Assembly (NCBI GenBank): GCA_963746905.1
Contig: CAVVCY010000003.1
Coordinates: forward strand, 484,419 to 548,418
DNA: 64,000 nucleotides
Origin: an uncultured Acidobacteriota bacterium
GTDB lineage: Bacteria; Actinomycetota; Acidimicrobiia; Spongiisociales; ZC4RG35
Reading direction: 5' to 3'
The position numbers and the translations under genes are program-made. The notes beneath the pieces were generated by a model, which saw only the letters and a program-made list of their open reading frames with translations, was not told the DNA's origin and made no database searches. Positions 4,542 to 57,738 of this stretch are shown one piece after another (the stretch's first letter is position 1; each line of letters opens with the position of its first letter).

Positions 4542-4860
4542 TCAGCTACCCCGATAGGTGGTGTACCCGTAAGGGCTGATCAAGAGCGGTATGTGATAGT
4601 GGTCCTGGTCTTCGTCGAGGTCGACCACCACGTGGACCTGGGGGATAGAAGGGGTTGCCCGCATCGCCGGTCTCGAAGACGAGCCGATAGACACCGCTGA
4701 ACACGGCGCCGGCCAGCATCACGATTCGCCCGTTGACATCGGTCACCCCATCGGACATGTGCTGCCAATGGCCATCGAGAGAGCGCTCGATGGTCACGGT
4801 GACCCCCTCCACCGGCTCGCCGCTAGCGGTGTCGAGGACATGGGTGCTCACAGACGTCAC
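4542..4860 (-). pseudogene. uraH: 5-hydroxyisourate hydrolase (transthyretin-like), reading frame broken by a 1-nt insertion in a G5 run; possibly a sequencing artifact
   Basis: N-terminal part MTSVSTHVLDTASGEPVEGVTV...YRLVFETGDAGNPFYP is in one frame. The conserved C-terminus QVHVVVDLDEDQDHYHIPLLISPYGYTTYRGS* is in the +1 frame and ends at the TGA at 4542-4544. Removing one G from GGGGG at 4640-4644 restores a continuous about-105-aa HIUase with the canonical YRGS end. Confidence 0.75.
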
Positions 4861-6287
4861 TTCTGGTCTCCTTCACACAACATTCTGCGGAGTCTGGTCG
4901 TCGTGATCGACCGCTGCTCACGGGACGCGTTCTCGATCTCTTGCACCCTGTCGTTTTCGAGCCGCCTCTGGGCGAGCGCCAGCATTTCCTCCGCCGTCTT
5001 CCCGGTTGCATAGACGATATAGGTGAAACCGAACCGTTCTTCATAGCGACGATTCGCCTCGGCGATGGCGGCCAGGGTGTCGGTTCCGGCATCGGATGCA
5101 CCGGACTGCTCCTGGTTGGCGGTTTGGTCCCCTCGTTCCCCGATCCGAGGATGCCCTTCGAAGCCCTCCAACCAGTCCGCCTCGGTGAGTTGGTCGAAGG
5201 CGGATTCGGCCGCGGCGTGCACTTCCAGCGAACCGGGATAAGGGCGCCCGGCCAACATCGAGCCGGCCCAGACGCCCGATGCGCAGGCGTGTCTGAAGAA
5301 ACGCCTCGCCGCCTGGGCGGTGAGCGCATTGAGATAGGAGAGCCGTTTCTCGACCGCCGCCTGACTGTCGGGGTGGCCCAGGGCCTTGATCCGGGCCAGT
5401 CCACCGTCGGGGTGGATGTCCACCCGCAAGTAGGCGCTGTGGGTCGGCTCCGGAAGATCGAGGCCGGCTGCCTCATGTGGGTTGACGGCAACCCGATCCA
5501 GGATCATGGTCCAAGCCGAGGCGTCTTCGGACACCGAGATCGAGACCCAACCCGGTGCGTTGCCCTTGAAATGCCGGGTGTCGATCACCACCGTCTCCAA
5601 GAGCCCCGGCATCCCTAGACGCAGTTCCACCCAGTCGTTGCCCGGGCCGCGGCGACGCTTGGTCTCCCAGCCGTCCCACATCCCCGCCGGCTCAGTGGGC
5701 CGGAGCAGGTTGGAGGGAGGCGAATAATGGACATCCGAGGCATCGACCGGCTCACCGCCGACCAGCATCGAGGCCAGATCGACCGGTTCCCCATCAGGGC
5801 AGACCTGGGAGCGCGAAGGGATCGGGGTGCCCTCGACCCGCAACCGGGCGACGCCCCCATCGGGAAAGATGTTGAGCCGGAGATAGGTGAACCGGTGTGG
5901 GTCGGCCACCGTGAACGATGCCCGGGAGTCGCCCGAGAGGGCAGTTAGGGGCAGAAGTTCCTCCCATTCGGCGGTCTCTAGTTGGCCGTCGTCGCCTTCG
6001 CCGCACCCTTCCAACGAGAAGGACTCGGCGTAGTTGCCGGTGAAGAAGGAGGTGTCCACGGTTACCTGCTCGACTCGTCCCGGGACTCCGAGGGCGATGA
6101 GGCACCAATCGTGCCCGGGGTCTCGGCGCCGCCTGGTCTCCCAGCCGTCCATCCACTTCCCGCGATCGGTGTATTCGGAATTGGAGATCGGATCGGCCAG
6201 TGAGATCAGATTCGAGGCGGGTGCAAAGAACTCGTCGTTGCAGGCGACGATCCGCCCACCGACGGCACTCGAGATCAGGTCGACCAT
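4857..6287 (-). CDS. alc: Bifunctional allantoicase / OHCU decarboxylase (two allantoicase repeats fused to a C-terminal UraD domain)
   Basis: From the ATG at 6287: MVDLISSAVGGRIVACNDEFFAP..., then two allantoicase repeat domains (WMDGWETRRRR..., MWDGWETKRRRGPG...), then a C-terminal about-160 aa with the OHCU-decarboxylase signature (...FGFTYIVYATGKTAEEMLALAQRRLENDRVQE...). The track ORF has a spurious Arg-rich extension upstream of this ATG. Confidence 0.8.
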   Translation of the reverse strand: MVDLISSAVGGRIVACNDEFFAPASNLISLADPISNSEYTDRGKWMDGWETRRRRDPGHDWCLIALGVPGRVEQVTVDTSFFTGNYAESFSLEGCGEGDDGQLETAEWEELLPLTALSGDSRASFTVADPHRFTYLRLNIFPDGGVARLRVEGTPIPSRSQVCPDGEPVDLASMLVGGEPVDASDVHYSPPSNLLRPTEPAGMWDGWETKRRRGPGNDWVELRLGMPGLLETVVIDTRHFKGNAPGWVSISVSEDASAWTMILDRVAVNPHEAAGLDLPEPTHSAYLRVDIHPDGGLARIKALGHPDSQAAVEKRLSYLNALTAQAARRFFRHACASGVWAGSMLAGRPYPGSLEVHAAAESAFDQLTEADWLEGFEGHPRIGERGDQTANQEQSGASDAGTDTLAAIAEANRRYEERFGFTYIVYATGKTAEEMLALAQRRLENDRVQEIENASREQRSITTTRLRRMLCEGDQK

Positions 6288-7585
6288 GTTCGCTCCAGCA
6301 TCCTGCCACCCACCCCGATGACTCCGGTCGCCGGGGTGAACAGAGTCTGCCCGCCCAGGATCACCTTCTCCACTTTGCCCCGTAGCCGCATTCCCTCGTA
6401 TGGGGTGAGGGGGTGGCGGTGCTCGAGCCCGGCCCCCACCACATCGGAGACGGCGTCGGGGTCCCAGATCACGAGGTCGGCGTCCTTTCCGACTTCGATG
6501 GCGCCTTTCCCGTCGAGCCCGGCGAGACGGGCTGGAGCGGTGGATAGCCATTCTGTGAGCCGATCGAAACCGAAGCCGCGACGACTGGCCTCAGTCCAGG
6601 TGGCCTGAAGCCGGATCTGCAGCGAGCTGATGCCTCCCCAGGCGGCGCCGAAGTCCCCGCTCTCGACCTGCTTCAGATCGGGCGGCGACGGTGAGTGGTC
6701 GGACACGATCATGGTCAGCGTTCCCTCGCCCAGGGCTTCCCACAGCGCTTCCCGGTGGGCAGTGCCCCGGATCGGTGGGGCACATTTGAACTCGGTGGCG
6801 CCGGTCCCGATCTGCTCGGCGGTGAAGGTGAGGTAGTGAGGACAAGTCTCGGCGCTGATGCCGGGTCCCGCCGATCGCAGCACGTCGGCGGCGTCGGCAG
6901 ACGAAACGTGGAGGATGTGAATCTGACCACCGGCTTCCAGGCCCAGGGAAATGGCGACCTCGATCGCCTCCGCCTCGCACTCCGCCGGCCGCGATTCGAG
7001 GTACCGGCCGTAGTTTCGAGGATCGCCGGTCATCGGATGGAGCCGGGCTGGATCCTCGGCGTGGAGCAAGAGCGGGACTCTGAGCCGGGCCAGAGTGGAA
7101 AGGGCGGCCTCCAGCCCGTCAACCGTCATCGGGGGGAACTCGGGGACCCCGGAGTCGACGAGGAATGACTTGAAACCGCAGACACCGGCCTTGACCAGAT
7201 CCTCGAGCCAGAACTCGGAGCCGGGGATCAGACCGCCCCAGAATGCGAGGTCGACGGCTATCGCTCCTTGGGCGGCCGTGCGTTTGACCGCAAGCGACTC
7301 GGGGTTCACCGTGGGCGGGATCGAGTTCAGAGGCATGTCGACGATCGTCGTCGTGCCTCCGGCCGCCGCGGCCCTGGTCGCAGTGGGGAAGCCCTCCCAA
7401 TCCGAGCGCCCCGGGTCGTTCACATGGACATGGGAATCGACCAGGCCAGGCATGACTACCAGATCCCCGAAATCCTCATCAGCAGGGCCATTTCCGATCT
7501 CGACGATCACACCGCTCTCGTGGCGGATGGTGGCCGGGCGCACCCCATCCGGCAGAACGACACGCCGGCTGCGCAAGGAAGGCAC
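6275..7585 (-). CDS. allB: Allantoinase (cyclic amidohydrolase superfamily)
   Basis: 436 aa. DSHVHVNDPGRSDWEGF...GGTTTIVDMP metal-binding motifs of the dihydroorotase/hydantoinase/allantoinase family. It is first in the operon with allantoicase, HIUase and uricase and overlaps the allantoicase start. Confidence 0.8.
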   Translation of the reverse strand: MPSLRSRRVVLPDGVRPATIRHESGVIVEIGNGPADEDFGDLVVMPGLVDSHVHVNDPGRSDWEGFPTATRAAAAGGTTTIVDMPLNSIPPTVNPESLAVKRTAAQGAIAVDLAFWGGLIPGSEFWLEDLVKAGVCGFKSFLVDSGVPEFPPMTVDGLEAALSTLARLRVPLLLHAEDPARLHPMTGDPRNYGRYLESRPAECEAEAIEVAISLGLEAGGQIHILHVSSADAADVLRSAGPGISAETCPHYLTFTAEQIGTGATEFKCAPPIRGTAHREALWEALGEGTLTMIVSDHSPSPPDLKQVESGDFGAAWGGISSLQIRLQATWTEASRRGFGFDRLTEWLSTAPARLAGLDGKGAIEVGKDADLVIWDPDAVSDVVGAGLEHRHPLTPYEGMRLRGKVEKVILGGQTLFTPATGVIGVGGRMLERTWST

Positions 7586-12581: not shown

Positions 12582-12589
12582 CGGCCAGC

Positions 12590-13110
12590 CCGACTTCGCC
12601 CTGACCGCGGCGATCGCCTGGTCGATGGTTGGATAGAGGGCCGGTCCGGACCCCCGCTCGCCAGTTGGGAGCAGGTCCTGCACCTGGCCTATGTCGTGTG
12701 CGATCACCAGATCGACCTCATTCGACCGCAATTCTTCGTTTACTTCGATGAGCATTCGCACCGCGGTGACGTCGATCGAGGGGATGGTCTCGGCATCGAT
12801 GATCACTGCCTTCGTCCCCGGCCTTGCCGCGGCTGAGCGGATATGGGCACGCACGAACTCCGAGTTGGCAAAGAAGAGGCCGCTTTCGACCCGAACGATC
12901 TCTATGCCAGCAGGCTTGACCGCCTCCGGCCTGCGCTCGATGTCGGTGTAGACGTCTGTGCCCGGAACCACCCCGAGTTCGGCGATGTGCGGCCTGGAGG
13001 ACCGATAGACGATGAGCAGGATCGACACGATGATGCCGATGAACAGACCGGGCAGGGTGTCGAAGATGAGAACCCCGAGCACCGCTGCCATCGCGGCGAT
13101 GAAGTCCGGC
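12590..13110 (-). pseudogene. Remnant of a SulP-family anion transporter: last TM helices plus complete STAS domain only, N-terminal about 380 aa missing
   Basis: Within the long minus ORF 11178..13340, only residues about 78-250 look SulP-like (FIAAMAAVLGVLIFDTLPGLFIGIIVSILLIVYRSSRPHIAELGVVPGT...GLFFANSEFVRAHIRS...ETIPSIDVTAVRMLIEV...TIDQAIAAV). Upstream sequence is not transporter-like. There is no stop before it runs antisense into the aminotransferase gene. Confidence 0.5.
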
Positions 13111-13224
13111 CGGGCGGGGCTGGACGTGGGGCGGCTATTGGGATTCTCCCACCGACTTCCAGCACTTTTCGACAACAGGACATTGACCGGGAACCGACTC
13201 GTGGTGAAACGACATCTAATCCCC

Positions 13225-15529: not shown

Positions 15530-16291
15530 ATGACCGATGGCCCCTTGTTCAGCCGCCGAATGGCGATCGCCGAGATGGGCAAGGCCGGTCTGGCTGTAGC
15601 CGTCCTTGGAATTGCAGCCTGCTCCGACGAGGGAACCGGCGGCTCGAGCAGTCCGACCACGTCGGCACCACGGGCGGCAACCTCGAGCACCGTGGTCGTC
15701 GGGTCGTCCTACAGGCGCATCAATCTCGGATTCGTCAACGCCTACATCCTTTTCCGCGCCGGCGAGGTGGCGCTGGTCGATACCGGCACCTCGGGAAGCG
15801 AGGAGGCGATTGCGGCTGCCCTCGACGGAATCGGGGTGGGATGGGAGGCCGTGGGCCATGTGATCGTCACTCACAAGCATCCAGACCACCAGGGGAGCCT
15901 GGCCGCGGTGGTGGCACTGGCTCCGGCCGCGCATGTCTACGCCGGAGCCGAAGACATACCTGAGATGGAGACCGTCACCACACCCACCGCGGTGGGCGAC
16001 GGGGAACAGGTGTTTGGCTTGGAGATCATCAAGACCCCGGGGCACACAGCCGGTCACATCTCGGTACTCGACGAGGTGGCGGGGGTCATGGTGACCGGTG
16101 ACGCCCTCAATGGGCTCAATGGAGGGGTGACAGGACCCAACCCGTCGTTCTCCGAGGACATGACGGCGGCCAACGCATCCGTGGCCAAGCTGGCGGGGTT
16201 CACCTACCAGACTGCTCTGTTTGGCCACGGTGAGCCGGTGCTCACCGAGGCTTCGGAACGGGTCAACGAACTCGCATCGAGTCTCGGCTGA
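15530..16291 (+). CDS. MBL-fold metallo-hydrolase, secreted (lipoprotein/Tat-like signal)
   Basis: HKHPDHQG (HxHxDH) zinc motif and downstream GHTAGH; N-terminal signal with a ...LGIAAC|S lipobox. Confidence 0.8.
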   Translation: MTDGPLFSRRMAIAEMGKAGLAVAVLGIAACSDEGTGGSSSPTTSAPRAATSSTVVVGSSYRRINLGFVNAYILFRAGEVALVDTGTSGSEEAIAAALDGIGVGWEAVGHVIVTHKHPDHQGSLAAVVALAPAAHVYAGAEDIPEMETVTTPTAVGDGEQVFGLEIIKTPGHTAGHISVLDEVAGVMVTGDALNGLNGGVTGPNPSFSEDMTAANASVAKLAGFTYQTALFGHGEPVLTEASERVNELASSLG

Positions 16292-16318
16292 GAGCCCGGC
16301 AATCCTTACGATCCGGAC

Positions 16319-16798
16319 ATGAGCCCGCTTGGAGAGTTCGTGGTGGCACTGGCGATTCTCGCCGGCCTATTTGGGATCGTCCTCCCATTCCTACCGGGGC
16401 TGATCCTGATCGTTGCCGCGGTCCTGGTCTGGGCCTTCGCCGTCGGCACTCCGACCGCATGGGCGGTGGCATTGGTCAGCATCGCGCTCGGAGTTGGAGG
16501 CACGATCTTCAAGTACCTGGTGCCTGGCCGCCGGCTGAAAGAGGTGGGCCTGCCTACGTCGACCCTGGTCATTGCGATCGGAGTCGCCATCGTGGGCCTC
16601 TTCGTCATCCCGGTGGTCGGAGCCCCCATCGGATTCGTTGCCACGATCTACCTGGCCGAGCGGATCCGCGTCGGCGCCAAGGCGGCGTGGCCGACCACGA
16701 AGACGTCACTGGGGGCGGTGGCGGCCTCGATCGGGATCGAACTGGCGACCGGCCTCATCATCGCCGCCCTCTGGTTCGGCGCGGTGATCTTCGACTGA
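16319..16798 (+). CDS. DUF456-family membrane protein
   Basis: 159 aa, four hydrophobic helices, GLFGIVLPFLPGLILIV motif typical of DUF456. Confidence 0.65.
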   Translation: MSPLGEFVVALAILAGLFGIVLPFLPGLILIVAAVLVWAFAVGTPTAWAVALVSIALGVGGTIFKYLVPGRRLKEVGLPTSTLVIAIGVAIVGLFVIPVVGAPIGFVATIYLAERIRVGAKAAWPTTKTSLGAVAASIGIELATGLIIAALWFGAVIFD

Positions 16799-18806: not shown

Positions 18807-18810
<4 letters not shown>

Positions 18811-20379
18811 GCGCTCTCATCCTCCTCGGGGTCGGCGGAAGCTACCAGAGGCTTGCGGGCCCGCCACCAGGTGACAAGGCCGATAGCGGCGAAGGCGATC
18901 ATCAGGACGTCACCGGTCCGGGCGTAAAGGGAGGGCTGGAGACCATCCACGCTTCCGTAGAGGATCTCCTGGGTGCCAAGCCCGGTGGTCGGCGACAAGC
19001 CACCACCTGCGCTGATGAACGCCGATTTCCCGGTGACCGCGGCATGGACCACGTCAAGGCCCAATTCGGCGGCCCGCATCCGGGTCATCCCGATGAACTG
19101 ATCGGAACCGGGGGTGGTCCCATACGAGGCCTCGTTGGTGGCGACCACGATGAAGTTGGCGCCCTCCTTCACATGCTGTCTCGGGTAACGGGAGAAGCCG
19201 CCCTCGAAGGAGATCACCGAGCCCATCATCACCCCGTCGCCAAGGTCGAACACCACCGGGCCGTCGCCGGGGATCATGTCACGGGGCACCTGATCGAGGG
19301 CCGGGATCCATTCGAATAGGGGACGGATCGGGATGTACTCCCCGAACGGAACGGGGTGTTGTTTCTGGTATTCGCCGACGATCTCACCTTGAGGGTTGAA
19401 CACGATGTTGACGTTCACCCACTGCGTGTCGCTGATCGGGCGATCCGAGCCGACCAGGAACCAGGCCCCGATGCGCCGGGCCTCGGCGGCGATCGCATCT
19501 CCGATCTCCGGGTTCTGCACCGGGTCGGCATTGAAACCGCCGGTCGAACCCTCGGCCCAGACCACCAAGGACACCGCTCCCGGCTCGATGGTCTTGGTCA
19601 ATTCGAGATGTTGCTGGAAAGTGCGGAGTCGCTCGTCGGGCGGGCAGTGCTCGAAAGGACAGGGCGTGGATCCCTGGACAACGGCCACAGGGATTCCCTG
19701 ACTCTGCGCGTTCCGGTTGTAGTGGGGATTGACTGAGCCACCCAGAAGGAGGATCGGCAGCGGGGTCAGGACCCACCAATTGCGTGGCTTCCTCCACAGC
19801 GCCACCACCGCGGCCACAGCCATCACGGCCAGCACGGTGACCCCGGTGTGTCCCGTACATCGGGGCGAAGTCCCGGGCCCAAACCTGATCGGACAGGCCG
19901 TAGCCCACGGCCCCCCACTCGAAAGAGAGGACTGGCATGTGATAACGGATCAACTCGGTGACGGCCCAGCCCCCGACTGCGAGCAGGAACCAGGTCCCGG
20001 AATCACGATCGTTGTACTTCGACAGCCACCATCCGTAGGCCGCCCAGAAAGTGGCCTGGTACACCACGAGGGGGATCACCGCCACCAGACCAAGCTCTAC
20101 GAACCACCAGAGCAGGATGGCGTTGAACACCATCCCGTAGGCCGTGCCCAGCAACAGACCCTGCTTGCGGTTGGGCGCAGTGCGCAACCCGGCGAGGAAG
20201 AGGGCAACGCCAGGCAGGATCAGCCACCCGGGGCCGATTCGGGGAAAAGCGAGGCCGGAGAGGACAGCCCCACCGACAACCAGCAACAGGCCAGTCACCG
20301 GCGAGAGGGTAGGGATTCCCGTTCCGTAGAGTGCCGGCCATGTGGGAAGGTGACCTCTGGGTTGCGGTGCGAGCGGCAC
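18807..20379 (-). pseudogene. lnt: Apolipoprotein N-acyltransferase (Lnt): membrane domain and CN-hydrolase domain in two frames, about 1-nt indel near 19841-19846; possibly a sequencing artifact
   Basis: ORF 19384..20379 carries the Lnt N-terminal TM region through ...GYGLSDQVWARDFAPMYG. ORF 18807..19835 carries the following TM (GVTVLAVMAVAAVVALW) plus the CN-hydrolase domain (VAVVQGS...VVWAEG...). The frames differ by 1; the switch lies in a CCCCGG run. Confidence 0.75.
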
Positions 20380-21150
20380 GGGCCGGAGCCGATGTGGTTC
20401 GCCGTGGCTTTGAGGAGTCCTTCGACACCGAGATGAAAGGCGTCGTCGACCCGGTGACCGACATCGACCGTGAGGCGGAGGCCGCGGTCACCGAGGTCAT
20501 CTCCGACCATTTCCCGGACGACTCCATCCTCGCCGAGGAGGGCGGAGGCGGCGGACGATTGGCACGGTCCACGGGTTTGGATCATTGATCCACTCGACGG
20601 CACCGTGAACTTCGTCAACCGCGTCCCTCATGTTGCGGTCTCGGTCGCCCTCTGGGACAACGGCGAGCCCTTGGTTGGGGTAGTTATCGATGTCGGCCGA
20701 AATGAGGAGTTCGTAGCAGCTGTCGGTGAAGGGGCGCGCAGCAACGGGCAGGCGATCCACGTGTCCAACACCGACTCGCTGGAGGATTCACTGCTGGCAA
20801 CGGGTTTTCCCTACGACCGTCAGGAACATGCCGGGGCCTATCTCGAGGCCATGGAACAAGTGATGACCCGGTGCCGGGACTCACGACGGATGGGTGCAGC
20901 TGCCCTCGACATGGCCTGGGTGGCCTGCGGCCGCTTCGATGGTTACTGGGAGCACGCAGGGACCCATGGTGTGAAGCCCTGGGACGCGGCGGCGGCCATG
21001 CTCCTCGTGACAGAGGCCGGTGGGACCGCCACGAACAGCAAGGGCGGGGTCAACGACCTCGAACCGTCCGCCTTTGTCGTCACCAACGGCAAGATCCACG
21101 AGGACCTGCGGATGGTCATCGACGAGCACATGCCGGCTCATCTCCAATGA
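20331..21150 (+). pseudogene. Inositol monophosphatase family protein (SuhB/ImpA-like), split by a 1-nt indel in a GGCGG repeat; possibly a sequencing artifact
   Basis: ORF 20331..20588 has the IMPase N-terminus through ...ILAEEGGGGG. ORF 20470..21150 continues in the other frame with DDWHGPRVWIIDPLDGTVNF... and the rest of the fold. Removing one G in ggcggaggcggcgga (20541-20556) gives EEGGGGDDWHGPRVWIIDPLDGT. Confidence 0.75.
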
Positions 21151-24834: not shown

Positions 24835-24872
24835 AGAGAGCCCCGGTTTCTACCGGGGCTCTCTTTTATTTG
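24835..24872 (+). terminator. Rho-independent terminator (12-bp GC-rich stem, T-tract)
   Basis: agagagccccgg-tttcta-ccggggctctct-tttattt. Confidence 0.8.
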
Positions 24873-24891
24873 ACTCGTGCTCGAACCTGGA

Positions 24892-25686
24892 TCAGGTGCC
24901 GCCGTCGGTCTGCAGGCGGAGATCGATGTCGTCGATCGTGGCCTGTTGTTGGGCCATCAGTTCCTTGAGCTGGCTGATCTTGTCTCGGACATCGTCATCT
25001 GATGCCGATTCTTCCGACTCCGGAGCCGCCTTAGACGGGGAAAGAAACAGGTTCGCCAGGTAGCCGGTGAAGGTGCCGAAGATGCCCACCCCGATGATGA
25101 TGATCACGGCGCCAAATAGCCGGCCTCCCCCTGTCACCGGAAACTGGTCGCCGTAGCCGACAGTCGAAATGGTGACGACGACATACCACAACGCATCGGA
25201 AGCCGAGGTGATGTTGGCTCCGGGCGCGTATTGCTCGAGGTAAAGGATCTCGAGACTCCCGAACTCGAGCACCAGGATGCCCATCAGCAGCAGGGTGAAG
25301 AGGGCGCTGCCGGCGCGGTCCTTGACCAGACCGCTGACGATCCTCCTGGTGCCATTGGCTCGTAGAAGCCGAATGACCCTGAACAGGCGGAATACCCGCA
25401 GAACTTTCGCCCCGTCGAATGGGAGGCTGGCGAGCAGGTCGGCCCAGCCGAACTGGCGAAAGAAATATTGGGACTTCGACTCCGCTGACAACAGTCGGTA
25501 GGTGAAATCACCCAAGAAGATGACGCTGAACAGCCCGTTCATGGTGTCCAGGACCGTGTCCAGGTTCGGGTCTTCAGCCAGGATCTTCAGAACGATGTTG
25601 ACTATGGACAGGATCGAGAGGATGCCGACGAAGATCTCGTACCCGGTGTTCTTGAGTTCTTCGCCCTGCACCTTCACGTCGTCCAT
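24892..25686 (-). CDS. Voltage-gated-type potassium channel (ion transport protein with TVGYGD selectivity filter)
   Basis: S4-like RVFRLFRVIRLLR, pore signature TISTVGYGDQ, inner helix with AVIIIIGVGIF, C-terminal coiled-coil tail. Confidence 0.8.
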   Translation of the reverse strand: MDDVKVQGEELKNTGYEIFVGILSILSIVNIVLKILAEDPNLDTVLDTMNGLFSVIFLGDFTYRLLSAESKSQYFFRQFGWADLLASLPFDGAKVLRVFRLFRVIRLLRANGTRRIVSGLVKDRAGSALFTLLLMGILVLEFGSLEILYLEQYAPGANITSASDALWYVVVTISTVGYGDQFPVTGGGRLFGAVIIIIGVGIFGTFTGYLANLFLSPSKAAPESEESASDDDVRDKISQLKELMAQQQATIDDIDLRLQTDGGT

Positions 25687-25799
25687 GTCCGTCCTCCTGT
25701 TTGGAGGATGGCGATTTCACGTCCGGATACCAAGGATCCGACGCAAGGAGCTCGTCGGGGCGGAATAAATCTCCCTTCGCCGCCGTACACTTCACCGAG

Positions 25800-26009
25800 A
25801 TGAAACAAGCCCTCCTTCAGGCTCCCGAGATCCACTGTGATCACTGCAAGATGAGCATCGAGGGTGCCGTGGGCGCCCTGGAAGGGGTTTCGTCCGTCGA
25901 GGTGGCTATCGCCGATGCGACGGTCGACGTCACCTACGACGACAACACCACCGACCTCGATGCGATCAAACACACCATCGAGGAGCAGGGTTACGCCGTC
26001 TTCGGCTGA
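25800..26009 (+). CDS. copZ: Heavy-metal-associated (HMA) domain copper chaperone, CopZ-like
   Basis: From the ATG at 25800: [35 protein letters not shown]...; ferredoxin-like HMA fold with a C-D-H-C metal-binding motif. It lies directly upstream of the P-type ATPase. Confidence 0.7.
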
Positions 26010-36233: not shown

Positions 36234-36801
36234 CGGCCACCTCCATAGCGAGCCGGGCCTTTTCCCTGGCTCTGCTCGCCATCGCTCTCGCCGCCATCGT
36301 GGTCATGCCCAACTGATCCGCCGCCTCCGCATAGGGCACACCCTCCACCTCGACGAGATAGAGGATGGCCCTGTGCTTTGGAGGAAGATCGAGGATCGCC
36401 TCGATATCGGCCGGATAGCTGGGCGACCAGCTCTCCTCGACGGAAAGCCGAGCTACGGCCTTCCGCCGGCGACCGAGGCTGCGCCGCTGATTCGAAGCCA
36501 GGTTCACGATCGTCGCTCGGAGGTATGCCAGCGGATCATCGAGGTCCGAGATGGTCCCTTTCCTCAAGATTCTCACCAATGCCTCCTGAACCAGATCGTC
36601 TGGCTCGATGTCAACGGAGCCCGCCACCGCCGCGATCCTTCGCAAGGCCGGATAGAGAGCTGTGATCAACTCCCTCTCCCGTTCCTCGATCGAAGATCGC
36701 TTTGGCAATCGAAGGTTCTCCCTGTCGTCACGTATGAAGACACCGCTCGGGCGCGATGTGTGACACGACTTCTCGAACAGTTTTCCATCCGCCGCCTGCA
36801 T
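36226..36801 (-). CDS. ECF-subfamily RNA polymerase sigma-70 factor
   Basis: Region 2 (ELITALYPALRRIAAVAGSVDIEPDDLVQEALVRIL) and region 4 (AILYLVEVEGVPYAEAADQLGMTTMAARAMASRAREK). Start is uncertain: Met at 36801 or a downstream GTG. Confidence 0.8.
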   Translation of the reverse strand: MQAADGKLFEKSCHTSRPSGVFIRDDRENLRLPKRSSIEERERELITALYPALRRIAAVAGSVDIEPDDLVQEALVRILRKGTISDLDDPLAYLRATIVNLASNQRRSLGRRRKAVARLSVEESWSPSYPADIEAILDLPPKHRAILYLVEVEGVPYAEAADQLGMTTMAARAMASRAREKARLAMEVAGG

Positions 36802-36870
36802 CGGCGGGCCCAAACGCGAAAAAGGAGGGGTTCTCACGGCCCCTCCCTTTGTCTATCTCGAATCAGCTGC

Positions 36871-37480
36871 TCAGCTCGGGAAGGCTTCCTCGAAGGCTGC
36901 CTGCAGCTCCGGAGTGCTCTCACCGCTGAAACCGCAGTAGTTCACGTTGCCGTCGAAGGCGGTGATCAGGTACTGAGTGCCCACCGAGAACGGGAACCCG
37001 CCAATCAACGCCTCCATGCCGGATGGCGCATGGAGGACCACCTGAGCGGCGTCGCCGCCCTTGTACCAGTGGTCCACATCCAGGGTGATGGTCTCCCCCT
37101 CGACCGAGGTGACCGTTCCCTCGAAGGCAACGGGCGCCTTGGCCAGTTCCTCGACGCTGAACATGATGCACATCGCCATCGGGTCCTCACCGCCGGCGTT
37201 CAGCTCGAGCGGCGGGCCCGAGGCGACCGGGTCGCTCCCACCGTCACGAGTTAGCAGGCCTACCGCGCCGATCGCCACGATGACGACAGCTGCTGCCGCC
37301 ACGGCGACCAGCCACGGTCTCTTGTTCTGGGCTGCCCGGGGATTCGGACTGCTCGGCATTTGGGGTGGTCATGATGTCCTCCAGAAGGTGTTGGGACGAT
37401 TCGGTCGTCACTGGCTCCGTCGGCACATCGGAAGTCATCGGGTCGAGCCGGCTGAGGCGATTGCGCAATTCGTCGGTCAC
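36871..37480 (-). pseudogene. Anti-sigma factor cognate to the upstream ECF sigma, split by a 1-nt indel in CCCGGGG (37335-37341); possibly a sequencing artifact
   Basis: GTG at 37480 overlaps the sigma stop (GTGA), giving MTDELRNRLSRLDPMTSDVPTEPVTTESSQHLLEDIMTTPNAEQSES... The frame then switches to ...RAAQNKRPWLVAVAAAAVVIVAIGAVGLL (TM) and an extracytoplasmic domain (ORF 36871..37359). Removing one C or G restores a single about-200-aa protein. Confidence 0.5.
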
Positions 37481-38016
37481 GGTCGATGCTCCTCGGTGTG
37501 TCGGTCCCGTTTCTGTCCAGAGTGAGAGGAATCCTGTCGGGCAAGTTTCTCTTCCAATTTGGCCTTGACTCTGGTGAGACGCAGGCTGACTGCGTTGGGT
37601 GTGGTTGCCAGCACCACAGCGATGTCCCGGGGCTCCAACTGCTCCCATGCCCAAAGGCGAAGCAACTCCTGATCGACCTCCGCCAGCTCGGCGAGCGCGG
37701 CCTCGAGCGTGGGATCATCGGGCTCGTGGCCTGGCGAAATCGCAGCCTCGTTTTTCATCCTGTCCACCAGACGCAGGTGACGCTCGGCCCCACGTCGTTG
37801 ATTGGCCAATGTTCGCCGGGCCACCCCGTAACACCAGGGCAGCGGCATGTCGGAGGGGACGTCGTCGAGGCGCCGCCACACGGTCAGCAGAACCTCGCTG
37901 AGAGCATCGGCCGCGTCCTCGGGCGTAGCGCGGCGTCGCAGATAGCGCTGGAGGGGCTCGTACACCTGGGCGGCGATGAGCTCGAAGCGTTGACGCCGCC
38001 CGATGTCGGAGTTCAC
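37477..38016 (-). CDS. ECF-subfamily RNA polymerase sigma-70 factor (SigE-like)
   Basis: 179 aa; region 2 (FELIAAQVYEPLQRYLRRRATPEDAADALSEVLLTVWRRL), region 4 (LWAWEQLEPRDIAVVLATTPNAVSLRLTRVKAKL). Confidence 0.85.
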   Translation of the reverse strand: MNSDIGRRQRFELIAAQVYEPLQRYLRRRATPEDAADALSEVLLTVWRRLDDVPSDMPLPWCYGVARRTLANQRRGAERHLRLVDRMKNEAAISPGHEPDDPTLEAALAELAEVDQELLRLWAWEQLEPRDIAVVLATTPNAVSLRLTRVKAKLEEKLARQDSSHSGQKRDRHTEEHRP

Positions 38017-40408: not shown

Positions 40409-41850
40409 TCAGCCGTCGAGGTTGGTCATGACGTGCTTGATACGGGTGTAGTCGTCAAGTGCGTACATGGATAGGTCCTTGCCGTACCCGGACTGCTTGA
40501 AGCCGCCGTGGGGCATCTCGGCCACGATCGGGATGTGGGTGTTGATCCAAACGCAGCCGTAGTCCAGGGCTTTTGCCATTCTCATCGCTCGCCCGTGATC
40601 CTTGGTCCAGACACTGGAGGCCAGCCCGTATGGAACCCCGTTGGCCCACGAGATGGCTTGCTCTTCGTCGTCGAACTGCTGAACCGTGACCACCGGTCCA
40701 AAGATCTCGTTCTGGCTCATCTCGTCGTCCTGAAGGAGACCGTCCACGACGGTCGGCTCGAAGAAGTACCCATCGCCGGCGACGGCTTTGCCACCGGTCA
40801 GAACCGACGCGTGACCCGGCACTCGCTCCAGGAAACCTGAGACCCGGTCCCGTTGATTCGGGTTGTTGAGGGGTCCGAACGCGGTGTCCTCGTCATAGGG
40901 ATCACCAGTCGCGGTGTCGCGTGCAGCCTCGACCAGCGCTTCGGCGAGGTCCGAGCGGACCCGTCCCGCGGCGAGGACCCTCGTTGAGGCAGTGCAATCC
41001 TGCCCGGCGTTGTAATAGCCGGCACCCGCGATCGCCTCGGCCGCTGCCTCGATGTCGGCATCGTCGAAGACCACGACCGGTGCCTTGCCCCCGAGCTCGA
41101 GATGGACTCGTTTCAAGTCCGAGGCGGCCGCTACCGCGACCTCTTTCCCGGCTCGGACGCTTCCCGTCACCGAAACCATGCTTGGGATCTCGTGCGCCAC
41201 CAGAGCCCTTCCAGTGTCCCGGTCTCCCGTGATCACGTTGAACACGCCAGGTGGGAGGAACTCGGCACACAACTCAGCAAGCGCCACTGCTGTGGCCGGG
41301 GTGGTGTCCGACGGCTTGAGGACGATGGTGTTCCCCGCTGCCAGGGCGGGGGCAATCTTCCACACCGCCATCATCAGCGGGTAGTTCCAGGGCGCTACCT
41401 GGGCGCACACCCCGATCGGCTCTCGCCTGATCATCGAAGTGTGGTTGGCGAGGTACTCACCGGTGGAGAGACCCTGGAGGTGGCGCGCCGCTCCGGCAAA
41501 GAACCGGATCTGGTCGACAGATGGCGGCAGCTCGTCTCCGAGGGCCAAACCGTAGGGCTTTCCTGTGTTCTCGGTCTCGATGCTGGCGAAATCCTCAGCC
41601 CGCGCCTCCAGGGCATCGGCGATCCGGAGCAGGGCCAGGCTCCGCTCCGAGGGCGTGGCGTCTCTCCAGCCAGGGAAGGCATCCAGGGCGGCCTTGCACG
41701 CCGCGTCCACGTCGGCCTCGCGAGAGAGGGGGCGCGTGCGTATTCCTGGCCGGTCGCCGGGTTGATCACCGCCGTGGTCTCTCCGCTCATGGGATCGGTG
41801 AACGCCCCGTTGATGAAGTTCCTGAGAGTCCCGGTTGTCGTAACAGCCAC
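40409..41850 (-). pseudogene. Aldehyde dehydrogenase family protein, N-terminal 47 codons in a different frame (1-nt deletion in a G5/C5 run at 41728-41732); possibly a sequencing artifact
   Basis: ORF 41431..41850 begins [41 protein letters not shown], then goes out of frame. ORF 40409..41710 continues ...(LSREADV)[14 protein letters not shown]... through the catalytic Cys (GQDCTAST) and ELGGKAP. Adding one C restores about 480 aa. Confidence 0.8.
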
Positions 41851-43821: not shown

Positions 43822-45663
43822 TCATTCCTTGGGGGTTACGGTCACCACCGCCTGAACTCCACCACCGGGAGCTGAGATCGTCTGCGTGGTCGGCTCGCCG
43901 ATTCGGATCTCGCTCCGGCCCGCGCTGGCGACAATGTTGCCCACCGCGGCGCCAACCGGAACCGGTATCGGATCCATTCCGGGGCAGGTCTCAGTAACCG
44001 TGCCGCTGAGCGACTCGACCGGGATCACGACCCGAATCATCTCCGAATCGGTCTCATTGAGACGCCCTTCCACCGACAACGAAACCGGGGAGTCGGCGGT
44101 AGCGGTGCACTCGCCGGTGAGCACCGACCCACCGACGACGGTCCCCGTACCCGACCCGCGATATACACCGTCGTCCCCTCGGGTGAGTGGGAGATCCGAA
44201 ACCACGAAGTGGACGTTGATCTCACCGTCGCCCAGGTCCAGGACGTAAGTCCCGTCGAGGTCGAACAGAAGGTCCTGGGGTTTGACTTCGAATTCAAGAG
44301 TCTTGCGGCCGATCCCACGTTTCGACTTCTGTTCCAACTTGATGGTCCCCTTATCACCATCCTCCGATCCTGCAGTGAATGTGTAGGACGCCGGCGGGTC
44401 CACCGGGGTGCCCGACTCGGGGGTGATCGACTCCTTGCCAGTGAAGGTGGCAATGATCGGACGCTCGATCTCGCCACCGTCGAAACGCTGCTTGGCGCTG
44501 ACGTCGAACTCGACCTCCTCGGAGGGATCGACCTCGCGTGATTCTTCCGAGGTGACCAGGTCGACACATTTGCCGGACCGCCAGAACTTCTCGGCGGCCT
44601 GAGAGGCGAGGCTGATCGCCATATAGGGCATGAGGGTCGACCCCCTCACGCTATTCACCTGTGCGGGAGTGGCGTTGTCTGAGGTCTCGCTGGCAGTGCC
44701 TGAAGGTGGTCCCAAGATCGCCACCGGGACCACGGCCGAGACATTCCACGGATCGCCTCCCCCGGTTCGGCCCTGGGCATCGACGTTGGCCGTGAATCTG
44801 GCTCCCACCAGCACCGCGTTGTCATCGGCGGTCAAGGTGAACGGAGCGTCGATCCTCCGCGTGCTGGTCACCGAAGGCGCACCGACCTGGGTGTAGCCCT
44901 GGGCCACATCGAGCACGTAATGACCTTCGGCTGAACCGTCCGGCTCCGGGCAGGCCAGCACGTCAAAACTTCCTTCGGCGGCCCCGACCATCGTGCCCAC
45001 GGTCGCCCCATCGGCACTGCTCACCGTGGTAGTTGAGAGTATCGAGACCTCGCCGTGCATTTGGCCCTCTCCGGTCCGCAATCCGAGTCGGGTCGTGATC
45101 CGGACCGACTCTCTGAGGTCTCCCTGTTGCGCCGGGTTGTAGGTCTCGGTCCTCTCGGTGCGGCTCAGCGGCTGTTCGACATCGGCTCTCTCTACAAAAC
45201 TTGACATCATCCCCATCATCATCGAAGCGGTGAATGTGGCGTCCCCCACCGAGCTCCCCGACCAATCGGCGGTGGGCAGGGCGTCACCAAGGCTGACCGA
45301 CAAACCACTTCCAGCAGTGAGATCCACCCCCAGCTCCTCGGCGAAGGCGAGAACCGTCGTTTCGCCGAACTCGGTCTCGGCCGCGTGCCGCCCGTCGACC
45401 AGCGCTGGGCCATCCTCGCCGAATGCCTCTGCGAGCCCCAGGTCCTCTTGCATCCCCCAGGTCATCGCCAGCTCCGCCTCGGCGGTCGCCAGCACGGTCG
45501 CGTCCCCCGGTGGGGGCAGGGTGATATCGGCAGAGGGGCCGGTGCTGGAACCCGTGTCGGCCTGGCTAGTCGTCGAGGTCGAGCTCCCTCCCTTCGAACC
45601 GGAGCAAGCGGCGACCAGCACCAGTGCGAGCACCATCGAAACCGAACACAGCCGACGCATCAA
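43822..45663 (-). CDS. Large secreted hypothetical lipoprotein (613 aa)
   Basis: MMRRLCSVSMVLALVLVAAC|SGS lipobox; Ser/Thr-rich linker; no recognised catalytic motifs. Confidence 0.6.
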   Translation of the reverse strand: MMRRLCSVSMVLALVLVAACSGSKGGSSTSTTSQADTGSSTGPSADITLPPPGDATVLATAEAELAMTWGMQEDLGLAEAFGEDGPALVDGRHAAETEFGETTVLAFAEELGVDLTAGSGLSVSLGDALPTADWSGSSVGDATFTASMMMGMMSSFVERADVEQPLSRTERTETYNPAQQGDLRESVRITTRLGLRTGEGQMHGEVSILSTTTVSSADGATVGTMVGAAEGSFDVLACPEPDGSAEGHYVLDVAQGYTQVGAPSVTSTRRIDAPFTLTADDNAVLVGARFTANVDAQGRTGGGDPWNVSAVVPVAILGPPSGTASETSDNATPAQVNSVRGSTLMPYMAISLASQAAEKFWRSGKCVDLVTSEESREVDPSEEVEFDVSAKQRFDGGEIERPIIATFTGKESITPESGTPVDPPASYTFTAGSEDGDKGTIKLEQKSKRGIGRKTLEFEVKPQDLLFDLDGTYVLDLGDGEINVHFVVSDLPLTRGDDGVYRGSGTGTVVGGSVLTGECTATADSPVSLSVEGRLNETDSEMIRVVIPVESLSGTVTETCPGMDPIPVPVGAAVGNIVASAGRSEIRIGEPTTQTISAPGGGVQAVVTVTPKE

Positions 45664-45897
45664 CTCCCCCGAAAGTCCCTGTTGAGGCTACCGATCAGTG
45701 ACGTTCGTTGCGCCGCTTGTAGTTGCCGGTCGCCCGCGCCATCACCTGCTGGGGATCCCAGATGTAGACCCGCTTCAGGAACTTCTCAGCGGCCTTTCCC
45801 CGCAGGATGGTGACCACCTCGCCGTGCCGGCTGATCGCCACCTCCCCGGCCTTCCAGATCTGATAGGAGAAGCCAAGATCAGGGCCGGGCTCCCGTC

Positions 45898-48768: not shown

Positions 48769-49056
48769 TCAGGCGCCCAGCCGCACGATCTTGTGTCGGA
48801 CAACCTCGTCGGCGAGGGACAGCATCCGATCTAGTGAATCGACGGCTCCCGCCTCAGCCTCGAAGTTCACCACCGAGTAGTAACCCTCGGAGAGATGCTC
48901 GATCTCGTAGGCGAAGCGACGCTTCCCCCAGAGATCCTTGCCTTTGACACTCGCTCCATGCTCGGAGAGGTACGACTCGAGTTCGCCGATCTTGGCGTCG
49001 ATGTCGTCCTCTGCGAGATCAGGACGATGAATCGTCATTAGTTCATAGTCGCGCAT
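48769..49056 (-). CDS. rpsF: 30S ribosomal protein S6
   Basis: From the ATG at 49056 with an AGGAGG RBS: MRDYELMTIHRPDLAEDDIDAKIGELESYL...; 95 aa. The track ORF has a spurious upstream extension. Confidence 0.9.
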   Translation of the reverse strand: MRDYELMTIHRPDLAEDDIDAKIGELESYLSEHGASVKGKDLWGKRRFAYEIEHLSEGYYSVVNFEAEAGAVDSLDRMLSLADEVVRHKIVRLGA

Positions 49057-49168
49057 TCGACCTCCTGTGGACATCCGTATGGAAGGCCCCATCCATTTGA
49101 TGGAGCAGGGGTTGCACGCATCCGAACGGCGCGAGACGTCGGTGCGGTCGCTCGAAGTGTATCCGCAG

Positions 49169-49590
49169 TCAGCCGCTTTCCCCATTCGGGGCGCCACTGA
49201 TCTGTGCACCGTCCTCGAACTCGTAGACCCCGGCCACCGTCTCCAGGACCCAAGACACATCGGCGGGAGATGGGTAGAGCGGGCACGGCTCGGCGGGACA
49301 GGGGGCCATCTCGGTGCCTCCGACGAGGGACCCGCTGGGGTCGAAGAACCAGATGTCGAGTGCGATTGGCACGTCCAGCATCCAATACCGCACAGGAGCC
49401 GGGACCTCGTAGACGAAGAGCATCCCGTCGGCTCCACCGGGGATCTCCTCGACCCCGGTCAGACCGACCTGGCGCTCCTCAGGAGTATCGGCGACGAGGA
49501 CATCGAGGGGTGCCTCGCCAACCTGGATCGACGTGGTCTCGACTCCCGGCTGCCAAGCACAGCCAACGACCAGGACCAGCAGAAAGAAGA
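49169..49590 (-). CDS. DUF192 (COG1430) family secreted protein; start codon unresolved
   Basis: ...RLAIFFLLVLVVGC|AWQPG signal/lipobox, then the DUF192 core (MLFVYEVPAPVRYWMLDVPIALDIWFFDPSG...). No ATG/GTG/TTG is in frame upstream of the signal peptide before it enters panB. Confidence 0.5.
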
Positions 49591-49593
49591 TGG

Positions 49594-55534: not shown

Positions 55535-55626
55535 TGCGGCTACAGATGCTACCGGCGCGGCGGAGCACGACCAGAGTCGGCCGCCCTACCTGTTGTCGCT
55601 GGGCGCCAATAACCTGTTGGTCACAC

Positions 55627-56289
55627 ATGGAGCGACTCACCCTCGGCCGCATGCAGAACCCAATCCGTGGCTTCCTCCACGGGTCGGCGGCGATCGCCGC
55701 CGTTGTCGGGCTCTTCGTGCTGCTCAACCAGGCCTGGGGAAACACTGCGGCTGCAGTCGGGTCCCTGGTCTTTGGCCTCGCGATGCTCGCCATGTACACC
55801 GTCTCCTCCCTCTATCACTCCGTCCCCTGGAGCTCGGAGTGGAAGGTGCGTCTGCAACGGGTAGACCACTCGATGATCTTTCTCCTCGTGGCGGGGACTT
55901 TCACCCCGATCGCCATCGCCACCATCGACGGGGTCGCCCTGGTGATCGTCCTCTGCCTGCTGTGGACTACAGCGGTGACCGGCATCATCCTCAAGGTGTT
56001 CCTTCCCAACGTGAAGACCTCCCTCTCGGTCACACTGCAGTTGGTGATGGGATGGTCGGCCTTGATCCTGATGCCCTGGGTGCTGAGCCGCCTTGGCGTC
56101 GGTGCGGTTGTCCTCATCGCACTCGGCGGGCTCTGCTACACGGTCGGAGCTGTCGTCTTCATGTCGAAGCGCCCCAGACTGTTTCCGAAGACGTTCTCCT
56201 ATCACGAGCTGTTCCATGTGCTCGTGATCGCCGGCACGGCATTCCATTTCCTCGCGGTGTACTGGTACGCCATCCCGGCGACGGTCTAA
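55627..56289 (+). CDS. Hemolysin III (PAQR/HlyIII) family channel protein
   Basis: From the ATG at 55627: MERLTLGRMQNPIRGFLHGSAAIAAVVG...; 7 TM; YHSVPW...RVDHSMIF...HELFHVLV motifs. Confidence 0.8.
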   Translation: MERLTLGRMQNPIRGFLHGSAAIAAVVGLFVLLNQAWGNTAAAVGSLVFGLAMLAMYTVSSLYHSVPWSSEWKVRLQRVDHSMIFLLVAGTFTPIAIATIDGVALVIVLCLLWTTAVTGIILKVFLPNVKTSLSVTLQLVMGWSALILMPWVLSRLGVGAVVLIALGGLCYTVGAVVFMSKRPRLFPKTFSYHELFHVLVIAGTAFHFLAVYWYAIPATV

Positions 56290-57738
56290 GCCAGCGGGAG
56301 CATCGACTCCTCGGCGCAGAGAGCCTCCACTTCTTCCCAGTCGGTGGGCACCGCCGAGGTCAGATTGTCGTGGCCCTGGTCGGTGATGACCACGTCGTCC
56401 TCGATCCTTATTCCGATCCCGAGGAAAGCTTCCGGCACCTTGTGCTTGATCTTCTCTGCATCGTCCCGCGCCTTCTGCTCAGCGGCCATCGCGGCCGACC
56501 TGCCCTCGAGAGTCCTCCGCAGCGCCCACTCGTCGAGGTCGTATTCGAGGAGGCTGAGCTCGATCTCGGCCTTGTGCGGGGCGACGTAGAGGCCGGGCTC
56601 GACCGTGAAGGCCATCCCCGGCTCCAGCTTGCGGGACACCCCGTCGATTCGATAGGAGCCGGCGTCGTGGACATCGAGACCGAGCCAATGGCCGGTCCCA
56701 TGGAAGTAGAACTGGTTGTAGTGGTGCATGGCCAGGCTCTCGTCAACCGACTTCGGGAGCAGGCCCAACTCGACCATGCCCTCGGTCAGGATCCGGGTGG
56801 CGGCGTCATGGATGGAGCGCATGCTCGACCCGGGCGTCGACATCTCGAGGCCGAGGCGCTGAGCGGCAAGCACCACCTCGTAGATGGCCTTCTGTGGGCC
56901 GCTGAACTTCCCGTTGGCGGGGAAGGTCCGGGTGATGTCTGATGAGTAGCCCTCGAATTCGGCCGCGGCGTCGATCAGACACCAGGTCGCCGTCTTCGAT
57001 CAGGCGCTCGTTCTCGACATAGTGGAGGACACAGGCATTCGCTCCCGAGGCGACGATCGATGGGTAGCCGTTGTGTCTCGACCCACCCGTCCGCCAGAAG
57101 TACTCCAGGGCTGCCTGCACCTGGTACTCGTAAATCCCCGGCCTCGCGAAGCGCATCGCCTCAATGTGGCCCCTAGCCGTCAGCTCGCAGGCGCGGCGCA
57201 AGCTGGCAATCTCGTCCTCGGTCTTGAATAGCCTCATCTCGCCAAGGACGACCGAAAGGTCGCGCACCGCGGAGGGCACCGATCCCCCGTAGCGAGATCG
57301 ATGGTCGCGAGCCTTCTCCACGAGTCGGTCGATTCGAGAGTCGTGGTGCTCGTTCCCGGTCTCATACCACAGGGCCTCACGACCGATCATGAGTCGGGTG
57401 ACCACCTCGTCGAGCTCGCCCAGCTCATAGGCGGCGTCCACTCCGAACCTCTCCTTGGCCCCGTCGACCCCTGCCCGGTAACCGTTCCAGGCCTCCATCT
57501 CGGGATCTCGGGCTCTCACGAAGAGGGTGTAGTCCCCATCGGAGTGGCCAGGAGTGATCACTGCCACCGCCTCGGGCTCCGGAAACCCGGTCAGATAGAG
57601 GAAATCGGGGTCCTGATGGAAGTCGAACGACGTGTCATAGCTGCGAGTCACCTCGACGGCAGCGGGGATCACAGCGATCCCGTCGCCACCAATGATCTCT
57701 GCCAGACGAAGGCGACGCGCTGCAAAGCGATCAGACAT
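56286..57738 (-). pseudogene. Xaa-Pro aminopeptidase (M24B, PepP-like), frame broken by a 1-nt insertion near 56974-56982; possibly a sequencing artifact
   Basis: ORF 56806..57738 encodes the N-terminal domain and the start of the pita-bread domain through ...ENERLIEDGDLV, then nonsense. The other frame continues LIDAAAEFEGYSSDITRTFPANGKFSGPQKAIYEVVLAAQRL...HGTGHWLGLDVHD... into ORF 56286..56876. Deleting one nt in ctggtgTctgatc restores DLVLIDAAAE. Confidence 0.8.

Follow-up and report, generated by a model that had tools for sequence, protein, structure and literature searches.

Six frame breaks in an uncultured Acidimicrobiia contig are most probably single-base consensus errors, not gene loss

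Introduction

Indels that persist in the consensus of long-read assemblies create false frameshifted 'pseudogenes', and in one assembly their share fell from 23.3% to 5.6% of the genes after correction (PMC12007338). Nanopore bins under ∼40-fold coverage need short-read polishing (PMC9262707), and big MAG sets assembled from Nanopore reads only, with Flye and Medaka, have been deposited at ENA (PMC12313526). Here, we analysed a stretch of 64,000 nucleotides (the window) from an uncultured Acidimicrobiia organism, in which a reading made from the sequence alone had claimed six genes disrupted by single-base indels. As in the Nanopore and PacBio assemblies described, isolated 1-nt indels split conserved genes (PMC12007338, PMC9262707). 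The lesions affect ∼10% of the genes, bear no relation to function and are absent from short-read assemblies of relatives; in ENA metagenome assemblies, Flye-style contigs of relatives carry a heavier load than the window. However, published long-read consensus errors are chiefly homopolymer-associated and, for Nanopore, chiefly deletions (PMC12007338, PMC9262707), whereas the window and four ENA contigs are rich in insertions (4–5 to 1) that mostly do not change the length of a run.

Results and Discussion

Six genes carry a single-base lesion

The six frame breaks are all present in the sequence: the runs that had been named lie at the coordinates given for them, and the reading frame switches at each of the six sites. 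The genes and their lesions are the following:

4542..4860, minus strand: uraH (5-hydroxyisourate hydrolase); one surplus base, either the A at 4645 after GGGGG (4640-4644) or a base inside the run
18807..20307, minus strand: lnt (apolipoprotein N-acyltransferase); surplus base at ∼19849 (T on the plus strand; A flanked by C's on the minus strand), within TGTGT
20340..21150, plus strand: inositol monophosphatase (IMPase) family gene; surplus G at ∼20552-20553, GGC GGC G/GAC
36871..37438, minus strand: membrane anti-sigma-like protein; surplus base at 37327 (C on the plus strand; G flanked by A's on the minus strand)
40409..41850, minus strand: aldehyde dehydrogenase (aldh); one base lost between 41728 and 41729 (C on the plus strand, G on the minus strand)
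56286..57738, minus strand: pepP (Xaa-Pro aminopeptidase); surplus base at 56979 (A on the plus strand; T between G and C on the minus strand)

Alignment to relatives thus gives five insertions and one deletion (4645, 19849, 20553, 37327, 41728/9 and 56979). It bears out the deletion in aldh and the inserted T in pepP that the sequence-only reading had described. That a 1-nt correction restores a full-length protein also held, since the repair produces one full-length ORF in all six genes and five of the products cover whole Pfam domains. Repaired UraH spans positions 1–109 of the 109 of Transthyretin/HIUase and, across its 105 aa, shows no difference from the intact protein P0123 of contig_7003 (100% identity). 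Repaired Lnt matches LNT_N (2–158 of 159) and CN_hydrolase, the IMPase Inositol_P (8–262 of 271, E=6e-64), and PepP, whose orthologue is intact at 483 aa, AMP_N and Peptidase_M24 (2–208 of 208). The repaired aldehyde dehydrogenase covers Aldedh from 4 to 461 of 461 (E=5e-161), with 98% aa identity over 480 aa. The Pfam scan assigns no family to the anti-sigma-like protein, which after repair aligns colinearly, over residues 1–186, with 10 homologues from JGI metagenomes; its label rests on the position of the gene, downstream of an ECF sigma factor gene (37477-38016), and on a single transmembrane segment.

The breaks belong to the deposited record and were not produced by extraction of the window, as two database proteins match broken ORFs. 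P0049 is the exact translation of 18810-19823 and P0161 that of 4549-4860 (both minus strand), and both come from the same 1,144,023-bp NCBI/ENA contig, which carries no annotation.

Position of each indel relative to the sequences of relatives

At the uraH site, two closer relatives (L085 and L086) read GGGGG-TAGAAGG and a more distant one (L084) reads GGGG-ATAGAAGG, so that the position of the indel is ambiguous; the five G's of the closer pair point to the following A as the extra base. At the lnt site, 5 nt from a CCCC run, seven of seven relatives are one base shorter and read GGGAC-CACCGG, and removal of the base gives YGTTGVTV, in agreement with the relatives. The extra G of the IMPase gene sits in a mere GG. 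For the anti-sigma-like gene, the window reads CCCAGAACAAG where the relative L081 has CCCA-AACAAG, so that the insertion lies 8 nt away from CCCGGGG and 11 nt away from the G4 within it. In aldh, the window has GCCCC-CTCTC and L081, 98.3% identical locally, has GCCCCGCTCTC; the relative thus carries GAGAG-C-GGGG, and the loss of the C itself generates the G5 run. Finally, pepP reads CTGGTGTCTGATC in the window versus CTTGTG-CTGATC in L081, and no run is present there. In lnt, the anti-sigma-like gene and pepP, the inserted base is unlike either of its neighbours.

Indel burden tracks assembly type

To compare assemblies, we counted indels only in coding sequence where the window genes are confidently intact; an 'ORF span' heuristic for assigning indel-bearing sequence was too noisy in GC-rich DNA and was dropped for this intact-gene counting. 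Three short-read contigs (L036, L001 and L086) contained no uncompensated 1-nt indel in 21 kb. In contrast, 45 kb from four Flye-style 'contig_N' contigs (loci L081-L085; ENA ERZ25039492, ERZ25039550 and ERZ25039478) contained 56 insertions and 14 deletions; most of these indels lie outside homopolymers, and only 20 of the 56 inserted bases are identical to a neighbour. The density reaches ∼70 per 10 kb in these long-read-style sister contigs. The window has this same signature at lower density, with insertions and deletions at 5:1 and mostly outside homopolymers.

Orthologues are broken in L082 (7 of 13) and in L083 (4 of 4), and none is broken in L036, L001, L002, L003 or L005, all five of which have an intact IMPase gene. 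No relative shares any of the six indels, and the orthologues are in frame at the sites. In L082 and L083 the breaks in lnt and the IMPase gene are at other positions, and L081 has a broken anti-sigma gene; damage to the same genes at different sites in sister assemblies is what random error predicts. L002, a Nanopore MAG of a relative from Microflora Danica, has no frameshift in 13 genes, which indicates that such errors need not follow from long-read origin alone. Indel burden follows the type of assembly rather than lineage or phylogeny.

Neither ∼15 billion proteins nor JGI contigs, when searched, yielded an independent sequence of the same species, short-read-derived or other. The best matches were at 88–89% aa for Lnt, 91% aa for an M3 peptidase and ∼70% aa for the anti-sigma protein (JGI contigs), and the closest DNA is contig_7003 (∼89–90% nt). 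The lack of a short-read copy of the species is consistent with a data set of long reads only, for which no polishing was possible. The three ENA assemblies are not mentioned in the full texts or supplements that we searched for a paper or platform; they resemble Nanopore-only Flye and Medaka projects such as PRJEB58634 (PMC12313526), a likeness that serves as a lead only.

Purifying selection persists downstream of the breaks

Including their 3' halves, the repaired genes are under the same purifying selection as the intact genes around them, with dN/dS values of 0–0.13 (lnt, 0.22) versus 0.007–0.16 in these neighbours. In uraH, dN is 0 on either side of the break, with dS of 0.55 and 0.21 (0.44 for the whole gene). 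Against contig_7003, dN/dS is 0.03 for aldh (0.029 in the 3' part), 0.078 for the 3' part of the anti-sigma-like gene, and 0.034 and 0.084 for the 5' and 3' parts of pepP. The 3' part of the IMPase gene gives 0.085. The values for lnt (0.21 in the 5' part and 0.23 in the 3' part) compare with 0.14–0.23 among intact lnt orthologues. Purifying selection thus persists downstream of the breaks, with no trace of inactivation or relaxed constraint, a picture that a very recent real mutation, within the last small fraction of divergence, would also give.

Origin of the frame breaks

We consider the six frame breaks to be single-base consensus errors of an error-prone assembly of the long-read type, and not gene loss, with a probability of roughly 0.88. 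Noisy reads, most likely long, of modest coverage and used without short-read polishing, would have left six spurious indels in the consensus, five insertions and one deletion. The source contig was presumably built from such long-read data, and the original reads would be expected not to support the indels. The living uncultured Acidimicrobiia organism most likely has intact, functional copies of all six genes. The finding is almost certainly an ordinary one, that is, a known kind of assembly artefact and not a real feature. Nevertheless, an automatic pipeline that annotates this record or comparable Mb-scale MAG contigs would list ∼10% of the genes as truncated or as pseudogenes. False inferences such as a lost purine catabolism (uraH) or a lost lipoprotein maturation (lnt) would result.

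A real and very recent inactivation, either through a burst of pseudogene formation in the lineage or in at least one or two of the six genes, is improbable. In its favour, the indels stand in the deposited consensus, dN/dS is blind to the latest events, and one gene remnant in the window, a SulP C-terminal/STAS fragment, is likely real. Moreover, loss of lnt or uraH would be tolerable, because several Actinobacteria survive deletion of lnt and the hydrolysis of hydroxyisourate also proceeds spontaneously. The sequence-only reading had counted lnt as an essential-type gene; this is a weak argument, and loss of lnt is not implausible on the ground of essentiality alone. Its view that the breaks are not biology is nonetheless supported on other grounds. 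About 10% of the genes (∼6 of 63, as had been estimated) are hit, once each, and we found no second frameshift, nonsense codon, larger deletion or IS element among the ∼63 genes. Relaxed selection is absent, orthologues are intact in all short-read contigs, and four long-read-style contigs show damage of the same kind. In addition, spontaneous bacterial indels are deletion-biased and arise mostly by slippage in runs, whereas here insertions outnumber deletions 5:1 and inserted bases are unlike their neighbours. True pseudogenes of decaying or recently host-restricted genomes likewise consist of frameshifted genes with recognizable halves, but the window differs from them in lacking multiple lesions, nonsense codons, IS elements, relaxed selection and sharing with relatives, and in its insertion-biased, non-slippage spectrum. 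Real indels would imply an unusual burst of gene loss in the organism, for which there is no support. A mixed origin, with one or more of the six genes truly and very recently inactivated in this Acidimicrobiia lineage and the rest of the breaks due to assembly error, is unlikely too; lnt would be the most interesting candidate, as its inactivation, if true, would leave lipoproteins without N-acylation.

Homopolymer context

Consensus error of the long-read type has to be distinguished from the run-length miscalls of flow platforms (454 or IonTorrent), in which every break would reflect a G/C run called with one base too many or too few. The sequence-only reading had placed five of the six lesions in G/C homopolymers or near-homopolymer runs. 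However, 21% of the window positions lie within 10 nt of a G/C run of at least 4, so that the apparent association is mostly chance in a sequence of 64% G+C. Only the lesions of uraH and aldh (two of six) adjoin a run, in both cases a G5. As 1.3% of the window lies within 1 nt of such a G/C run, two in six would occur by chance with a probability of ∼0.0025, which counts in favour of flow-platform miscalls, and the G4 of the distant relative permits a G4-to-G5 reading at uraH. Nevertheless, in no fewer than four of the six cases the indel is not a run-length change. The inserted bases of lnt, the anti-sigma-like gene and pepP do not extend a run, and the C lost from aldh lay between G's, so that its G5 is a consequence of the loss. 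The IMPase run is only GG, and uraH is ambiguous, with the closer relatives favouring a surplus A.

Flow-platform miscalls resemble the window in their frameshifting single-base indels, two of them beside a G5, but the size and context of the contig do not fit either: 1.14 Mb from an uncultured soil-type actinobacterium is unlike the yield of a 454 or Ion metagenome. We regard this mechanism as very unlikely and, on the strength of the alignments, as largely refuted. Of the causes that had been proposed for the breaks, a sequence-quality problem and an unpolished long-read assembly fit the data, and the 454/IonTorrent homopolymer mechanism does not, with at least four of six changes not being of run length and five of six being insertions. 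More generally, a nearby G/C run is no evidence of homopolymer error at 64% G+C, and the exact site needs alignment to relatives.

Programmed recoding or phase variation, in which ribosomal frameshifting or transcriptional slippage would bypass the breaks or repeat tracts would make them switchable, has short G/C runs near some sites in its favour and nothing more, and can practically be dismissed, because the orthologues are all single-frame at the sites, so that a frameshift is not conserved, and long tracts are absent (mononucleotide runs reach at most 6 nt anywhere in the window, well below typical contingency tracts); moreover, the six sites have no common motif and the six genes are functionally unrelated.

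Other genes of the window

A codon-usage frame plot, a closer look at five suspect sites and another Pfam scan revealed no seventh broken gene among the ∼63. Suspected frame breaks proved to be separate, intact genes: the amidohydrolase gene (1-1121), MBL and DUF456 (15530-16798), copZ and copA (25800-28182), the ECF sigma factor gene mentioned above (37477-38016), a small ORF near 45650-45880, and rpsF and DUF192 (48769-49556). Finally, we noted that the SulP C-terminal/STAS fragment (12582-13160), which is absent from the relatives, is likely a real gene remnant.

Location and repair of the frame breaks

All six sequence runs singled out by the sequence-only reading are present where it placed them, and in each case the reading frame switches at the run within its gene. 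Removal of one base from uraH, lnt, the IMPase gene, the anti-sigma gene and pepP, and addition of one base to aldh, gave single ORFs. After repair, five of the six ORFs align with full Pfam domains from end to end. The anti-sigma-like membrane protein belongs to no Pfam family; once repaired, its residues 1-186 are colinear with 10 JGI metagenome homologues. A codon-usage frame plot of the whole window revealed no further same-strand frame switch within any gene, and ten more ORFs scanned against Pfam showed complete domains or no hit. Closer inspection of five other candidate sites showed distinct, unbroken genes there: a sigma factor, rpsF/DUF192, copZ/copA, MBL/DUF456 and, near 45.7 kb, a small ORF. 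The earlier tally of affected genes is thus borne out, at 6 of ∼63.

The exact indel positions were obtained by comparison with syntenic loci of relatives: two short-read MAG contigs (L036 and L001, ∼80% nucleotide identity to the window), a JGI contig (L086, 86%), the closest relative, contig_7003 of the ENA assembly ERZ25039492 (L081 and L085, 89-90%), and three more ENA contigs named in the Flye style (L082, L083 and L084).

Frame-broken genes of the window and the single-base change in each
4542-4860, minus strand, uraH (5-hydroxyisourate hydrolase): extra A at 4645, directly after a G5 run
18807-20307, minus strand, lnt: extra base at 19849, inside TGTGT
20340-21150, plus strand, IMPase (inositol monophosphatase family): extra G at ∼20553, in a GG
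36871-37438, minus strand, anti-sigma-like membrane protein: extra coding-strand G at 37327, between two A's
40409-41850, minus strand, aldh (aldehyde dehydrogenase): base lost between 41728 and 41729
56286-57738, minus strand, pepP (Xaa-Pro aminopeptidase): extra T at 56979, between G and C

The G5 run of uraH is also found in L085 and L086, and L084 has G4, from which a G4-to-G5 change is a possible alternative reading of this site. Repair of lnt at 19849 restores the YGTTGVTV found in every relative; taking the base from the nearby G/C run instead would yield YGTHRV. The anti-sigma indel lies 8 nt from the CCCGGGG stretch to which it had been assigned and 11 nt from the G4 run of that stretch. 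At the aldh site, a relative that is locally 98.3% identical reads CCCC-G-CTC, and the five-base run of the window is therefore a product of the loss. The window thus contains five insertions and one deletion, and only those of uraH and aldh adjoin a run. As 21% of all window positions have a G/C run of at least 4 nt no more than 10 nt away, proximity to a homopolymer weighs little as evidence. The proposed mechanism, G/C homopolymer errors typical of 454/IonTorrent, does not fit, since at least four of the six changes alter no run length; its alternative, an unpolished long-read assembly, is the only part that does.

Selection on the repaired genes

Against contig_7003 (dS ∼0.3-0.5), whole-gene dN/dS was 0 for uraH, 0.030 for aldh, 0.054 for pepP and 0.127 for the anti-sigma gene, and 0, 0.029, 0.084 and 0.078, respectively, downstream of the breaks; 19 intact neighbours gave 0.007-0.159. 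The repaired UraH protein is 100% identical to its contig_7003 orthologue. Against L036 and L001, dN/dS was 0.09 for IMPase (3' part, 0.085) and 0.22 for lnt (5' part, 0.21; 3' part, 0.23), with 0.14-0.23 for intact lnt orthologues among themselves. Nothing in these comparisons indicates that the halves downstream of the breaks were ever untranslated. Moreover, the window genes carry no nonsense codons, second hits, larger within-gene deletions or IS elements. That lnt is an essential-type gene is a weak argument, given that several Actinobacteria tolerate its deletion.

Indel burden and assembly type

Uncompensated 1-nt indels were counted in the coding sequence of window genes that are intact. 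None occurred in the short-read contigs L036 (11.0 kb), L001 (8.3 kb) and L086 (2.0 kb).

Extra and missing bases in the ENA 'contig_N' loci (coding sequence compared)
contig_7003 (L081 and L085): 8 extra, 0 missing (21 kb)
L082: 6 extra, 1 missing (14.4 kb)
L083: 5 extra, 1 missing (2.9 kb)
L084: 37 extra, 12 missing (7.1 kb)
Total: 56 extra, 14 missing (45 kb)

In these ENA loci, 20 of the 56 inserted bases are identical to a neighbour, about the random expectation. Frame-broken orthologues were found for 7 of 13 genes in L082 and 4 of 4 in L083, and for none in L036, L001, L002, L003 and L005. Both lnt and IMPase are also broken in L082 and L083, at positions other than those of the window. 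In contig_7003, the anti-sigma gene carries frameshifts of its own in the C-terminal part, for which the window retains conserved sequence, and an amidohydrolase gene that is unbroken in the window has two insertions. Indel burden therefore follows assembly type, and the window, with a 5:1 ratio of insertions to deletions, mostly outside homopolymers, at ∼1 per 10 kb, carries the same signature as the ENA loci at lower density.

The frame breaks in the public record

The window has a G+C content of 64%, and the closest relatives of its genes are uncultured Acidimicrobiia MAGs. Two database proteins, a 338-aa Lnt C-terminal fragment (P0049) and a 104-aa UraH with an out-of-frame tail (P0161), are exact translations of broken ORFs at window 18810-19823 and 4549-4860 (both minus strand), so the frame breaks are present in the public record. 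Both are singletons from one 1,144,023-bp contig (NCBI and ENA) without annotation names. No same-species sequence was found among ∼15 billion proteins or JGI contigs, which fits a sample without a short-read counterpart.

Origin of the frame breaks

We consider it highly probable (∼0.88) that the six frame breaks are a sequence-quality artefact and not a biological feature. The sequence-only reading had made the same central call, which is supported by normal selection, single uniform lesions and the distribution of the burden by assembly type. These observations, together with the insertion bias and the non-slippage character of the insertions, also disfavour recent real pseudogenes, whether all six or some, even though a very recent mutation and a sequencing error look alike by sequence comparison alone. 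Orthologues are in frame and the longest mononucleotide run in the window is 6 nt, which for practical purposes excludes programmed frameshifting and phase variation.

The artefact would have arisen by assembly from noisy reads, leaving single-base consensus errors; the reads were most probably long, with modest coverage and without short-read polishing. False frameshifted genes are documented to arise from long-read indels; in one example, correction lowered their share from 23.3% to 5.6% of genes (PMC12007338). Nanopore bins below ∼40-fold coverage require polishing (PMC9262707). ENA holds large Nanopore-only MAG sets assembled with Flye plus Medaka (PMC12313526). However, the textbook long-read consensus profile differs from the insertion-rich, non-homopolymer profile seen here. 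In L002, a Nanopore MAG from a relative, 13 genes are free of frameshifts. The result serves as a warning for annotators of this record and similar MAGs.

Other features

Four public metagenome contigs of related Acidimicrobiia, contig_7003 (L081 and L085) and contig_83228 (L083) of ERZ25039492, contig_23114 (L082) of ERZ25039550 and contig_40939 (L084) of ERZ25039478, are riddled with gene-splitting 1-nt insertions. In L084, uncompensated indels reach ∼70 per 10 kb of coding sequence. Large protein collections contain, as fragments, the proteins predicted from these contigs.

A purine catabolism cluster (3721-7585) comprises uricase, uraH, alc/uraD and allantoinase. Within it, one ORF (4857-6130, minus strand) encodes allantoicase (two repeats) and OHCU decarboxylase; this 415-aa fusion is also found in contig_7003 and is therefore real, not another frame artefact. 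Of a SulP-type transporter, 12582-13160 (minus strand) encodes no more than the final transmembrane helix and the STAS domain (Pfam STAS, E=6e-14), and the transporter body is absent upstream. L036, L001 and L084 have 22-117 bp in place of these ∼600 bp, and L082 has a Peptidase_M15_4 gene; the spot is variable, and the feature is likely a real remnant of a gene, or else a small STAS protein. A ∼0.9-kb segment (24870-25761; G+C 0.595 versus 0.64) encodes an ion-channel-like membrane protein (24892-25686, minus strand). Neither L036 nor L082 has the gene at the corresponding position, and tblastn gave no match in any locus tested; the segment looks like a lineage-specific insertion.

The stretch 35292-38016 (minus strand) holds two pairs of genes, in which an ECF sigma factor gene (36226-36837; 37477-38016) precedes one for a membrane protein (35292-36233; 36871-37438). 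Both membrane proteins lack a Pfam family. That of the second pair is conserved in at least 10 soil and sediment metagenome contigs, and its C-terminal motif DGNVNYCGF is invariant. At 57740 and 57765 the window shows two more 1-nt differences from contig_7003, and either sequence may be the correct one. They fall immediately upstream of where pepP starts and two codons short of the Exo_endo_phos stop, the C-termini of the latter being ...EYVGS* versus ...EYVAPG*.
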